The notes: a model not told the origin generated them from the letters alone. A stretch of 64,000 bases of DNA from Dictyostelium discoideum (GCA_000004695.1 CM000151.3:6976001-7040000), one strand, 5' to 3'; counted from the first letter of the stretch, positions 3,797-10,396 are shown. Translations and numbers: made by a program.

Positions 3797-6102
3797 ATGG
3801 AGTCATTTACAGAGAAAATGTTTGATTTTCAAAGAAGAGCAACACAAGCAGTACTTCAAAAGATGGGAGCATCAGAAACAACAATTGATGAACAATTTGA
3901 AAATACTCATACAAATTTTAAAAGATTAGGTGAATTTTTAACACATTTAGAGGAATCAACACAATCATCATTAACTCAAATGGAAAAGATGTGTTTTGCA
4001 AATAATCAATTAGCATCATCTTTATGTAATTTCGTATTATCAGAGTTATCAAATGATGACACTGAATTCTCTACAGGTTTATTATCGAAATTCTTTTTAA
4101 AAACTTCAACCAATCCAAACCTATCTCAAATGGAAAACACTAAAGAGTTTGAATTGAGACAATCAAAATTTCAAGAATCAGTTCAAAGATTATACGATAG
4201 TTTCGGTACAATGGGTCATGAAAATATGGCCTCTACTCAAGATGAAATCAATCATAAAATCGTACGTCCAATTAAAAGAGATCAAGATTATAATAAAGTA
4301 ACTAAACAATTAATAGAAAAAAGAAAAAAATTAAATTTAGATTATGATTCAATTAAAAGATCAAAGTAATTATTAATATATATATATATATATACACATA
4401 TTATATATATTAAATTTAATTTATTTCATTTACTAATTATTATTGTTATGTTTTTTTTTTATTTTTTTTTTATAAAAGTGATAATGAAAAAATTAAATTA
4501 GTTAAAGAAGAATTTGATATATTATCAAAGAAAACAGCATCACATCTTCAAAATAGGTCATATGTAAGATGTAAATTAATAGTTCATAGTGTAATCACTA
4601 TGGTACAACAATTTTGTATGTTTTTCGAATCAAACTCTGTACTTTTAGAAGGATTATTAACATTTATAGAACCACTCATTCAAACTTATCAATTAAATAC
4701 CGAGCAATTAACTGATATCTATACAATTAAAAAAACAACAACCCCCACCACCACCACCACTACTACCTCTTCACCTTCATCTTCTTCACCTAGACAACAA
4801 CCATTTAATGGCAGTAATAACAATGGTAATACTCCAACTGGAAAACCGATACCATCTTCACCACCTCCAACTTATAAAGAGCATTTAGATAATAATAATA
4901 GTAATAATAGTAATCATCAACAACAACAACAACAACATCAACAACAACAAAACCAACAAAGAAATAATAACAATAATAATAATAATAAAAATAATAATAT
5001 GAATGAAAGTCATCAAAATTTAAATGAAGAATTTACACAAAAGGCATCATTTCAAGGATCACCATCAGATTCAAATAGTAGTACAAGTAGTAATAATTAT
5101 TCACCTCAACAACAACAACAACAACAACAACAACAACAACAACAACAACAACAACAACAACAACAACAACAACCACCACCACCAAAGGAAGAGAAATTAT
5201 TTAGCGTTTGGGATGATGATTTAAATGGTAAATCTAATGATGATAATAATACGGCAAGCAATAGTAATAGTAAGAGTAAAAGCAATGATGATGATGATTG
5301 GATGTATAATAATAATAGTAGCGACAATAAACCAAATTTGAGTAGGTCCGATACAACTTGGGAAGATCCTTTAGTACCAGAAAACAGCTCCTATTCAAAA
5401 CCAGCATATTCTTCATTTAATAATACTCCACAACAACCGCAATACTTTAATACACAACCTCAACAACAACAACAACAACAATTTAATAGACAGCCACATC
5501 AACAACAACAACAACAACAACAACAACAGCAACAACCTTTTAACAGACAGCCATCTCAACCATACCAACCACCTCCACAACAACAACAACAACAACAACA
5601 ACAACAACAACAACAACAAAAAAAATCAAGCGGATTTGAAAATATATTTGGTGATTTTGATTTTACCTCTCCTTCACAACAAAGACAGAACCCACAACCG
5701 CCTCAACAACAAAGTAATTATTTTAATAATGGTATGCCACCACAATCATCAGTTTCTCAACATGTTGATAATCACCAACATGAAAGATCAAATGTTGAAC
5801 CTATAGTATCAGAGAAAATAAAAATGTGGGGTGAAAAGGGTGGTAGAAAGAATAATTTAAGAGTTTTATTATCGACACTTCATGAGGTTTTATGGATAGA
5901 AAGTGGTTGGGAAAAAGTAACCTATGGTTCATTGGTTACTCCAATTCAAGTTAAAAAGGTTTATCGTAAGGCAATCATCGTTGTCCATCCTGATAAAGTT
6001 CATAATGGTACAATGGAACAAAAAATGATTGCTCAAAGAATTTTCGAAACTCTTAGAGACCAATTTGAAGTTTTTAAAGTTGATTTAGAACCATCAAATT
6101 AA
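3797..6102 (+). CDS. Auxilin-type J-domain protein with an N-terminal BAR/arfaptin-like helical domain and a long poly-Q/N linker. Two exons: 3797..4365 and 4479..6102.
   Basis: Donor aa|GTAATT at 4366. The acceptor is (T)n ATAAAAG at 4477-4478, joining in phase 2 (AA+T gives Asn). The C-terminus LRVLLSTLHEVLW...LVTPIQVKKVYRKAIIVVHPDK closely matches the auxilin/GAK J-domain, including the HPD motif. (CAA)n encodes runs of more than 20 Q. Confidence 0.8.
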
Positions 6103-6384
6103 TTAAAAAATAAAAAAAAAAAAATAAAAAAAAAAAAAGAAAAAAAAAAAGAAATAAAAAAGAAATAAAAATAAAAATAAAAAAATAAAATAAAAACAAT
6201 TAAATTAATAAATGAAAAATAAATAAATACTCTAAGGATCTTTTATTTATTTTAATATATTTATTTATTTGGGAAAAAATGATAAAATGGTTGACCCACT
6301 AAAAGAGAAAAAAGATAATTGTTTAATTTATTTTATTTTTATTACAACAGACTAATTAAAGTTTCATTTAATATTTTAAATTTT

Positions 6385-6739
6385 TATTATTATTATTATT
6401 ATTATTATTATTATTATTATTATTATTATTATTATTATCATTATTATTATTACTATTATTGTTATTTTTATTATTATTATTATTATTATTATTATTATTA
6501 TTATTATTATTATTATTATTATTATTATTATTATTATTATTATTATTATTATTATTATTATTATTATTATTATTATTATTATTATTATTATTATTATTAT
6601 TATTATTATTATTGTTATTATTATTATTATTATTATTATTATTATTATTATTATTATTATTATTATTATTATTATTATTATTATTATTATTATTATTATT
6701 ATTATTATTATTATTATTATTATTATTATTATTATTATT
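6385..6739. repeat. (ATT)n microsatellite, about 118 units with a few interruptions.
   Basis: Direct reading of the sequence. The six-frame ORFs 6319..6750, 6368..6811 and 6459..6782 (poly-Y, poly-N, poly-L) are artefacts of this repeat. Confidence 0.95.
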
Positions 6740-7839: not shown

Positions 7840-8335
7840 TTTTAAAAAGAGAATTAAAAGTTGTGATGATTTTGTGAAAAAAATAAAAAAAAAAAAATAA
7901 AAAAATTAAAAATCGCACAAAAATTTTTTATTTTGGTTAATCTTTTTCTCGAAATCAAAATTTTTTAAAAAATAATTTTTTAAAAATTTAATAAAAAAAC
8001 ATTTCAAAATAATTATATTTAAATACAAAGATAAGAACTAATTATTAAATTTGTTATGAGTTATAATTATAATATTTTGATTAGAAAAAGTTTTTTTGAA
8101 AATAGATGTAAAATTATTAACCAAAACAAATAAACTAAAAGAAATTTTTTTTTTTTTTTTTTTTATTGACAATTATTTTATTAGTAAATAAAAAAAATAA
8201 TAATAAATTTATTATATGATATTACATTTATTTGTTGTTTTTTTTTTTTTTGTTTTATATTTTTTTTTTTTATTTTATTTTTTATTTTTTTTTTAAAATC
8301 TATACTTTTTTTTTTAAAAAATTTGAAAATTGCGT

Positions 8336-10396
8336 TTAAAGTTCATCATGGTTTGGCATATCTTCACCAGCGCCATTTGGGGAACCACCAGCAGCACCAT
8401 ATAATTTAGAGAAGATTGGTTGAACGATCTTTTCAAGGATTTTGTATTGTTCATCAAATTCTTCTTTTTCGGCAGAGGAGTTAACATCCAACCAAGAAAG
8501 GGCATCAGAGATAGCGGTTTCAATGGTTTCTTTATCATCTGATTCGATTTTACCACCGATCTTATCTTTATCACCAATGGTGTTTTTAATTTGATAGATG
8601 TAATTTTCCAAGGTATTCTTGGCTTCGACACGTTCTTTGGCAGCTTTATCTTCATCAGCGGCATCGGCAGCTTCTTTGACCATACGATCGATATCGGCTT
8701 GTGAGAGACGTTCCTTATCGTTGGTAATGGTGATGGATTCTTTAGAACCAGAAGCTTTATCTTCAGCTGATACATGTAAAATACCATTGACATCCATTTC
8801 AAAGGTGACTTCAATTTGTGGGACACCTCTTTGAGCTGGTGGGATACCAGAGAGATCAAATTTACCCAAGAGATTGTTATCTTTGGTCATTGAACGTTCA
8901 CCTTCATAGATTTGAATGGAGACACGATCTTGATTATCTTGATAGGTTGAGAAAACTTGTGATTTCTTGGTTGGAACAAATGTACCTCTTGGGATTAAGG
9001 CAGTCATAACTCCACCAACGGTTTCAATACCGAGGGTGAGTGGGGCGATATCTAAGAGTACGAGAGTGTCAGTACCTTCTTCATTGGTGAAAATACCACC
9101 TTGAACGGCAGCACCATAGGCTACAGCCTCATCTGGATGAACACCACGATTTGGTTCTTTACCATTGAAAAAATCTTTTAAGAGTTGTTGAATCTTTGGA
9201 ATACGAGTTGAACCACCAACTAAAACTACTTCGTGGATTTGTGATTTCTTGAATTTGGCATCTTCTAATACCTTCTTTACTGGGTCTAAAGTCTTTTTGA
9301 AGAGATCCATATTGAGTTCTTCAAATTTGGCTCTGGTGAGGGTTTCAATGAGATCTTTACCATCAAAGAAGTTTTCAATCTCTAATTGGGTTTGTGGAGA
9401 GGTTGAGAGAATACGCTTGGCATTTTCAGCAGCTCTTCTTAATTTTTGGAGTGATTTCTTATCTTTTGAGGCATCTTTACCAGTCTTCTTTTGGAAAACG
9501 GTTAAGAAATGTTTCATAACACGTTGATCGAAATCTTCACCACCTAAATGAGTGTCACCATTGGTTGAACGAACTTCAAATACACCATCTTCAATGGATA
9601 AAACTGAAACATCAAATGTACCACCACCTAAATCGTAAACCAAGATATTCTTTTCCTTATCACCAGTGGCATCGAAACCATAGGCTAATGCTGCTGCGGT
9701 TGGTTCATTAATAACACGTAAAACTTCAAGACCTGCAATAACACCTGCATCCTTTGTGGCTGCACGTTGTGCATCATTGAAATAAGCTGGACATGTTACA
9801 ACGGCGTGAGTTACTGTCTTACCAAGGGATGCTTCGGCAATTTCCTTCATTCTACCAAGGATCATTGCTGAGATTTCTTCTGGTGAGTAAGTCTTTTCTT
9901 CACCTTTAACTTTAACTACAACGTATGGTTTATTATTTTTTGAAACAATTTTATATGGTAATAATTTCATATCTCTTTGAACTTCTTCATCATCAAATCT
10001 AAAAAAAAAAAAAATAAATAAAAAAATAATTAGTTATATATTTAAAAAAAAAAAAATAAATAAAAAATAATTAATTAATTACCTTCTACCAATTAAACGT
10101 TTAATATCAAAAATTGTATTTTCTGGGTTGAGAGTTGCTTGATTCTTTGCAGCTTCACCAATGAGACGTTCAGTTTCAGTGAATGCAACATATGATGGAG
10201 TAATACGATTACCTTGATCATTTGGAATAATTTCAACTTTACCTTTCTTGAAGACACCAACACATGAATAGGTAGTACCTAAATCAATACCAATAACACT
10301 TCCATAATCTTTCTTTTCTTCTTCTTTCTTTTCAGCTGCTGCTGCAAAAGAAATTAATAATAATAAACATAATAATGCGTAAATGGATTTATTCAT
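8336..10396 (-). CDS. grp78: ER-lumenal Hsp70 chaperone BiP/GRP78 (signal peptide, C-terminal HDEL). Two exons: 10081..10396 and 8336..9998.
   Basis: Exon 1 encodes [21 protein letters not shown]...[14 protein letters not shown]...LIGR. Donor ag|GTAATT at 10080. Acceptor tttAG at 10000-9999. Exon 2 continues [19 protein letters not shown], carries the full Hsp70 ATPase and substrate-binding domains, and ends [10 protein letters not shown]. Confidence 0.9.

Follow-up and report, generated by a model that had tools for sequence, protein, structure and literature searches.

A probable old tandem duplication with microhomology at its junction between a J-domain-like gene and BiP in Dictyostelium discoideum AX4

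The region between the 3' ends of a J-domain-like gene (hereafter J gene) and the BiP/Grp78 gene of Dictyostelium discoideum AX4 is best explained as a fixed, old tandem duplication of a cassette of ~1.1-1.2 kb, one half of which would have decayed in this strain (probability roughly 0.85). It lies in a stretch of 64,000 nucleotides (GCA_000004695.1 CM000151.3:6976001-7040000; hereafter the window, with positions counted from its first letter), which is AT-rich, contains CAA and AAT repeats and was placed on AX4 chromosome 2 by a protein search. The cassette would comprise the end of the J gene, its 3' flank (block A), a small gene of the interferon-inducible ISG12/IFI6 family (IFI6-like gene), the region upstream of that gene (block B) and the BiP stop codon. 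A tandem segmental duplication linking the J and BiP 3' ends through a chimeric junction had been claimed in an earlier note on this DNA and is borne out by alignments, blastn searches and synteny in other genomes.

Repeat blocks and their junction

The repeat blocks, the two parental arms of microhomology and the junction are located as follows.

5994-6343, plus strand: block A, the J coding end and ~240 nt of 3' flank
7158-7481, plus strand: block A', the duplicate of A, which now flanks the surviving IFI6-like gene on its 3' side
6744-7157, minus strand: block B', an orphan copy of the BiP 3' flank and the IFI6-like upstream region
7840-8336, minus strand: block B, the IFI6-like upstream region and BiP 3' flank, homologous to B' from ~7934
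5994-6009, plus strand: microhomology arm 1, TAAAGTTCAT-a-ATGGT, J gene codons D-K-V-H-N-G
8337-8352, plus strand: microhomology arm 2, TAAAGTTCAT-c-ATGGT, reverse complement of BiP ..N-H-D-E-L-stop
7158-7167, no strand assigned: duplication junction, one copy of TAAAGTTCAT
7159-7257, plus strand: orphan J-gene fragment, 32 codons and a stop, KVHNGTMELKMIAQRIFETLREQFEVGLKSSN followed by the stop

When the region was compared with the whole window by blastn, A/A' and B/B' were its strongest self-matches. In the alignment of blocks A (5994-6343) and A' (7158-7481), 307 positions match, 11 differ and 38 columns are gapped, so that identity amounts to 96.5% where bases are aligned. This pair gives the top match at 426 bits and includes an ungapped seed of 79 nt of coding sequence (5994-6072 and 7158-7236) that is 97% identical. 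The alignment of B' (6773-7173) with B (7880-8352) contains 338 matches, 40 mismatches and 118 gap columns, corresponding to an identity of ~89-91% and, with a micro-inversion described below set aside, to a divergence of ~9%; blastn recovers this pair as self-matches of 235 and 81.5 bits, and weaker homology can be traced back to ~6744 in B' and 7934 in B. Offsets between the collinear end blocks (A/A' and B'/B) range from 1132 to 1179, with the diagonals of an ungapped repeat finder at 1132-1164, and the two units lie head-to-tail (5994-7157 and 7158-8336) with lengths of 1164 and 1179 bp. The blocks proposed earlier are thus real, although their positions were off by 3-13 nt (A' starts at 7158, not at 7171).

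B' and A' adjoin at 7158 without filler or inserted bases. The junction (7153-7175) reads gcgttTAAAGTTCATaatggtac, in which the left side is of the BiP type (gcgtt, including the reverse complement of E-L-stop), the right side is of the J type (aATGGTac), and the change from one to the other falls inside a 10-mer. This 10-mer, TAAAGTTCAT, is present exactly at 5994-6003, 7158-7167 and 8337-8346, and beyond it the two parental arms share ATGGT after a single mismatch, giving 15/16 identical positions. The sequences compared were gcgttTAAAGTTCATaATGGTac for the junction, ctgaTAAAGTTCATaATGGTac for the J gene (D-K-V-H-N-G) and gcgttTAAAGTTCATcATGGTtt for the BiP end (reverse complement of N-H-D-E-L-stop). 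An exact join at a 9-mer native to both parents had been reported; the join is exact and the shared sequence is native to both genes, but it measures 10 nt and includes that 9-mer. When 200,000 breakpoint pairs were picked at random in the two parental regions, 10 nt or more of microhomology arose with a probability of 6e-5 to 3e-4; the junction was therefore guided by homology. The locus thus combines head-to-tail copies, paired microhomology, a single microhomology copy at the junction and a microhomology longer than random, as in microhomology-mediated tandem duplications (MTDs). Non-allelic homologous recombination between long repeats was considered and rejected, as the parental sites share 10 nt exactly (15/16 when extended) and the single-copy genome L003, introduced below, is without a longer repeat.

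The orphan J fragment differs from its parent by five substitutions in 96 nt, all five non-synonymous, and by a 9-nt in-frame deletion. It appears to be a relic with a pattern as expected without constraint. A truncated fragment with a 30-nt deletion had been described; the fragment is there, while its coding deletion comprises 9 nt and the remaining length difference between A and A' is located in the A-rich 3' flank. Similarly, the term pseudo-3'-exon is apt insofar as a J relic is present, but nothing shows that it is spliced or used. A retrocopy (processed pseudogene) origin of the fragment was rejected, since collinearity continues beyond it across ~220 nt of 3' genomic flank and on into the gene next to it, and since the fragment adjoins the BiP flank in tandem-duplication register.

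The cassette in related genomes and the probable loss of one copy

The protein encoded by the IFI6-like gene has four relatives in the protein collection, all of them from recently sequenced wild isolates whose genomes stem from a study combining Nanopore and Illumina data (PMC12745789). Syntenic loci were compared in D. discoideum ACTFIW (L002), D. cf. discoideum ACTFIY (L003) and D. cf. discoideum ACTFIZ (L001). The order BiP - IFI6-like - J is retained in all four genomes including AX4, and TAAAGTTCAT is present at both parental sites, the J coding sequence and the BiP stop, in L001, L002 and L003 alike. L002 contains the same duplication, L003 a single copy and L001 what is best read as a separate duplication.

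The L002 locus consists of the BiP stop (9339), B, gene a (10001-10353), A', B' (from ~10560), gene b (11030-11413), an (AAT)62 tract (11438-11621), A and the J end. Gene b is an intact open reading frame (ORF) of 127 amino acids (aa), which scores 27.1 bits against the Ifi-6-16 profile, slightly under the cut-off of 29.1. A' and B' of L002 share derived bases with those of AX4 (e.g., ctttttgtggg, tatcaaaata and gttttgatta), AX4 B' being orthologous to L002 10560-10935, and the two genomes therefore share one duplication event that took place before the split of the two isolates. The L002 junction aligns to the AX4 junction on both sides, with ~120-140 nt in the middle replaced by ~22 nt; what L002 lacks here is the J fragment, some of the A-run, the BiP stop and the very beginning of B', which would be most simply explained by a later deletion.

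L003, a cryptic sister lineage, contains one IFI6-like gene, followed by (AAT)42 and A, and its J and BiP genes each carry their microhomology arm. L001 encodes two intact IFI6-like genes, which are 6.5% apart and differ by 23-26% from all others. Its junction lies at a different microhomology of 6 nt (TTCAAA, 9551-9556; parental copies at 8439-8444 and 10487-10492), and its unit of 1112 bp is without J or BiP fragments; the most plausible reading is that the same IFI6-like cassette was duplicated independently in this lineage.

Several further features of these loci were observed. AX4 block B contains an 18-nt micro-inversion (8015-8032, no strand assigned; ATATTTAAATACAAAGAT), which is the exact reverse complement of the state found in AX4 B' (6869-6886), L002 B and L002 B', with unchanged flanks; it is specific to the AX4 lineage and explains six of the B/B' mismatches. 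In L002, the frame of gene a is shifted within the first hydrophobic segment by a deletion of 10 nt, which the annotators bridged with an implausibly short intron. In the single IFI6-like gene of L003 (9909-10306), a C-run is 1 nt shorter (gagcaccagtc, as opposed to gagcacccagtc) and the frame is broken, the called product being a 101-aa protein that starts from an internal ATG; this difference could represent a pseudogenising change or a homopolymer error of the Nanopore-based assembly. L003 also encodes a gene with DDE transposase domains (PF01609, PF13359; 2224-3525) a few kb upstream of BiP; no transposase-domain gene was called at the corresponding place in L001 and L002, and the AX4 window itself was not checked for one. 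L001 contains a near-perfect inverted repeat at 8821-8938 (arms of ~36 nt, ccacactgaggactttttt...aaaaaagtcctcagtgtgg, with a spacer of ~45 nt) upstream of copy a, which is absent upstream of copy b and in the other genomes and may be a small palindromic insertion.

We hypothesize that the locus was originally arranged as J(+) -> A <- IFI6-like(-) B <- BiP(-), and that the two ends of the cassette shared TAAAGTTCAT by chance. A homology-guided error would then have joined the BiP-side copy of this sequence to the J-side copy, most likely through replication template switching or slippage between the arms, with microhomology-mediated joining of sister chromatids as an alternative route. The product would have been J-A-gene(b)-B' | A'-gene(a)-B-BiP, in which the junction retains a single copy of the microhomology and both flanking genes are intact. 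After the divergence of AX4 and L002, which the duplication would precede, the J-proximal copy b would have lost its coding sequence and ~95 bp of promoter in the AX4 lineage, where the (AAT)n repeat 3' of copy b, now of 120 units, would have come to adjoin B' directly and the orphan J fragment would have drifted without constraint. Growth of the repeat may have preceded or followed the deletion.

Two further features bear on the loss of copy b.

6380-6739, no strand assigned: (ATT)120 microsatellite ((AAT)n on the gene strand), identified by Tandem Repeats Finder, 96% pure, 360 nt
6344-6379, plus strand: short unique spacer that separates A from the microsatellite, with its orthologue at L002 11604-11650

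The microsatellite, previously counted as (ATT)~118, is the same one that occurs as (AAT)62 in L002 and (AAT)42 in L003, and in AX4 it occupies the place of the lost J-proximal copy b. The earlier suggestion that one middle of the duplication was replaced by the ATT tract and the other carries the IFI6-like gene agrees with the intact second ORF that L002 retains at this place. Homology of B' ends at 6744, i.e. 95 nt upstream of the parental ATG and 4 nt away from where the ATT tract ends, the spacer at 6344-6379 is orthologous to that after (AAT)62 in L002, and tblastn identified no remnant of a second IFI6-like coding sequence in AX4. Because B' stops at -95, the spacer matches L002 and no coding remnant is found, AX4 appears to have lost ~500 bp of copy b, including the proximal promoter (~95 bp), the coding sequence and a short 3' piece. 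This deletion would have been offset by growth of the microsatellite, and the near-equality of the two unit lengths is therefore partly coincidental. Three overlapping ORFs of 107-147 aa (polyY, polyL and polyN) cross (ATT)120 at 6319-6811, the polyN frame being without an ATG start; these ORFs are spurious, mechanical products of the repeat. The L002 annotation joins the equivalent polyN tract to gene b, which results in a 174-aa model.

The genes of the AX4 locus are as follows.

4600-6102, plus strand: J-domain-like gene, its last long ORF (from the ORF list), polyQ-rich, with a C-terminal HPD motif
7477-7839, minus strand: IFI6-like gene DDB_G0276513, the surviving BiP-proximal copy ('a'), 120 aa (from the ORF list and Pfam Ifi-6-16)
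8336-10396, minus strand: BiP/Grp78 gene, two exons (10396-10083 and 9998-8336), 658 aa, C-terminal HDEL

The final 35 codons and the stop of the J gene fall within block A. Its product matches the DnaJ profile (PF00226) with 17 bits (E = 0.006; Pfam gathering cut-off 27.8) and contains the HPD motif (..VVHPDKV..), consistent with this polyQ gene encoding a divergent C-terminal J domain. Orthologues occupy the same position in L001-L003, and a protein search with the C-terminus of the J protein returned no Dictyostelium protein. The 120-aa ORF at 7477-7839 is 100% identical to the AX4 protein DDB_G0276513 and belongs to the Ifi-6-16 family (ISG12/IFI6/IFI27; PF06140) with a match of 36.4 bits over residues 31-105 (cut-off 29.1); exact-protein look-ups of this product and of the BiP exon-2 ORF returned no record, and a literature search retrieved no paper that mentions DDB_G0276513. 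The spliced 658-aa BiP product scores 688 bits against the HSP70 profile and has a signal peptide-like N-terminus and an HDEL end, as expected of Hsp70/BiP. For annotation, 6344-7476 is without a gene, the J-like ORF fragment at 7159-7257 should be treated as a relic and the polyN ORFs of the ATT tract as spurious.

Age, divergence and alternative explanations

Third-position divergence of BiP amounts to 2.2% between AX4 and L002, 5.1% between AX4 and L003 and 6.4% between AX4 and L001. In the IFI6-like genes, synonymous divergence (dS) is 0.10-0.13 between copies a and b, 0.085 between AX4-a and L002-a and 0.13 between AX4-a and L003, and reaches 0.27-0.45 against L001 (0.34-0.45 for the a and L003 copies). 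The duplication predates the AX4/L002 split and would be about as old as the split from L003. Copy b has accumulated 16 private changes, compared with 7 and 9 in a and L003. Differences between a and b are mostly non-synonymous (ratio of non-synonymous to synonymous divergence, dN/dS, 1.4-1.8), an excess that is not significant (Fisher P = 0.16 and 0.39). The IFI6-like coding sequences of AX4 and L001 differ by 23% of nucleotides (dS ~0.44, dN ~0.22), compared with 2.1% for BiP, and the upstream region in block B is barely alignable between AX4 and either L001 or L003.

The two pairs of blocks have diverged unequally, A/A' by 3.5% overall and by 2.7% in non-coding sequence, the latter compared with 9% in B/B' (P = 0.002). 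Orthologous A blocks are 1.3-2.5% apart in all four genomes, and A' differs from these by 3.6-6.3%, which argues that A is constrained, most simply as the 3' untranslated region or terminator of the J gene, and that A' is relaxed. Gene conversion is therefore unnecessary to account for the unequal divergence. Within the J 3' flank, a unique part of ~125 nt (6195-6343; copy at 7325-7476) is almost invariant in the four genomes (1.3-2.5% divergence) and holds a short hairpin-forming repeat (aaataaataaa...tttatttattt). In addition, an ACCCAC(A/T)A motif, which resembles a Dictyostelium upstream element, is present on the plus strand at ~6297 and ~7427, these positions being estimated by eye. Block A as a small RNA gene was rejected: Rfam gave nothing relevant, no tRNA was identified, the fold is no better than those of shuffled sequences (z = -0.15), L001 does not retain the motif and, downstream of it, sequence conservation is lacking.

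Several observations weigh against a single old duplication as reconstructed here. The exact junction that bears the J fragment occurs in the AX4 assembly only, ~130 nt of it being absent from L002, and it is by parsimony that the J fragment would belong to the original event. Informative sites are distributed 7:4:2 across the three groupings of a, b and L003, with all dS values at ~0.09-0.13, and L003 could be an ancestral single-copy state or a secondary collapse. A profile search with six IFI6-like sequences identified no orthologue outside the D. discoideum complex, so that the comparison is confined to this complex. As to mechanism, the sequence alone is compatible with microhomology-mediated break-induced replication (MMBIR) or another template switch, with microhomology-mediated end joining and with unequal sister-chromatid exchange. 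The template-switch or MMBIR-like origin put forward earlier is right in placing the breakpoint at microhomology, but MMBIR itself is unproven: since the junction is without insertions or inversions, nothing points specifically to multi-step template switching.

A mis-assembly, in which reads from the J and BiP 3' regions were misjoined or duplicated, would account for a J-fragment junction seen in AX4 only, and an AT-rich region with a 360-nt microsatellite is hard to assemble. However, a misjoined segment would equal its source, whereas here the copies differ by 3.5% (A/A') and ~9% (B/B') with many indels, and the J fragment by five substitutions and a 9-nt deletion; the divergence therefore effectively excludes an artefact. 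Moreover, an independent assembly from Nanopore and Illumina data (L002; PMC12745789) contains orthologous A' and B' in the same order, and we regard this explanation as extremely improbable. Practically no credence can be given to the idea that the similarities reflect chance or low-complexity poly(A/T). Long A/T runs in both blocks do resemble numerous sites across the window (70-85% identity), but these unrelated matches reach at most ~154 bits (68-83% identity) among the matches listed, compared with 426 bits for A/A' and 235 bits for B/B', and the best matches fall in unique, non-repetitive sequence, i.e. the 79-nt coding stretch (97%), the ~125-nt 3' element and unique runs in B such as aagaactaattattaaatttgttatga.

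A two-step origin, in which a short junction of the L002 type arose first and the J and BiP fragments were added in AX4 later by gene conversion extending past the old junction, would be in line with the absence of these fragments from L002, and the closer similarity of A/A' (2.7% non-coding) than of B/B' (9%; P = 0.002) could be a hint of conversion. Conversion past the junction would nevertheless need a new template switch at the same microhomology, and hence more events than one deletion in L002; in addition, the J fragment is no younger than the rest of A' (5/96 and 6/222 substitutions, not significantly different), and the lower divergence of A is explained by constraint, as orthologous A blocks are 1.3-2.5% apart. 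This course of events appears quite improbable. A single, much older duplication common to the four genomes, with the L001 copies homogenised by gene conversion and their junction remodelled and L003 collapsed to one copy, which would leave no lineage-specific events, is to be taken more seriously, though still unlikely. Informative sites slightly favour the grouping of a with L003 over that of a with b (7 vs 4), the a-b distance (14-16%) exceeds that between a and L003 (11-13%), and tandem duplicates are known to revert by unequal exchange. Yet the L001 junction lies elsewhere (TTCAAA, 1112-bp unit, without J or BiP fragments), the L001 copies are 6.5% apart but 23-26% from all others, and the 16 private changes of copy b, compared with 7 and 9, inflate the a-b distance without an older split; the dS values fail to separate the alternatives. 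We thus favour a duplication shared by AX4 and L002, with a separate one in L001.

Comparison with known systems

The fate of the two copies resembles the classical model of duplicate-gene birth and death with divergent (reciprocal) loss between populations. AX4 has kept copy a and lost b, and in L002 copy b is intact and a carries the 10-nt frameshifting deletion, an apparent reciprocal loss of paralogues within one species. Compared with the model, the AX4/L002 case is known from sequence alone, and the frameshift comes from a single L002 assembly. Additional interest lies in the fact that this small, fast-evolving gene has been duplicated more than once independently, that its copies appear to have been lost reciprocally in the two isolates and that a microsatellite has taken the place of one of them. 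Two independent duplications at different microhomologies, reciprocal loss, a coding divergence of ~23% compared with 2% for BiP, and a dN/dS of 1.4-1.8 (not significant) would be in keeping with the IFI6-like cassette between BiP and J being a hotspot of recurrent microhomology-mediated duplication and rapid turnover, an idea that we offer as a doubtful possibility. If selection drives this turnover, the gene would be an arms-race-type member of the interferon-inducible ISG12/IFI6 family in a social amoeba.

D. discoideum AX4 also contains a large duplication on chromosome 2, which is a laboratory-strain event that is absent from other laboratory strains (PMC12745789). Like it, the duplication between J and BiP is tandem and lies on the same chromosome of the same strain; unlike it, the latter measures 1.2 kb, has diverged and is also present in a wild isolate. 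Fork stalling and template switching (FoSTeS) and MMBIR are replication-based template-switch models for copy-number change. As in these models, the AX4 junction falls in a short microhomology (from a few bases up to about twelve), and the copies are in tandem and direct orientation. However, the junction is without their hallmark templated insertions, inversions and multiple switches, and slippage or microhomology-mediated end joining would fit equally well. Short tandem duplications with junction microhomology have furthermore been reported in BRCA1-deficient cells, where they are linked to the repair of stalled forks (PMC12309385). These duplications are somatic, arise in a repair-deficient background and are typically larger (PMC12309385), whereas the AX4 event is germline, evolutionary and belongs to a wild-type lineage.

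MTDs have been described in fission yeast (PMC8639346) and are reported to be widespread across many species (bioRxiv 10.64898/2026.02.28.708716), with longer microhomologies making an event likelier (PMC8639346; bioRxiv 10.64898/2026.02.28.708716). A literature search retrieved no paper on microhomology tandem duplications in Dictyostelium. The AX4 locus shares with MTDs a single-copy segment between short identical sequences, a head-to-tail product with one extra microhomology at the junction, and the lack of filler. It differs from them in that spacings in the yeast survey were 3-500 nt and the events mostly subclonal and reversible, whereas the AX4 duplication spans ~1.1-1.2 kb, is fixed and old (copies 3-10% diverged), includes a whole gene and is partly decayed. 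The J-BiP duplication is a new example of a known process, involving neither a new mechanism nor a new kind of element. As such it offers a clean natural case of a gene-sized microhomology-mediated tandem duplication, for which both arms, the junction, a single-copy relative, a two-gene intermediate and a decayed end state are available. It illustrates that 10 nt shared by chance between the ends of two unrelated coding sequences (HPD-KVHNG and HDEL-stop) can lead to the duplication of an entire gene and leave its neighbours unharmed, and that a flanking microsatellite can come to occupy the site of the copy that was lost.

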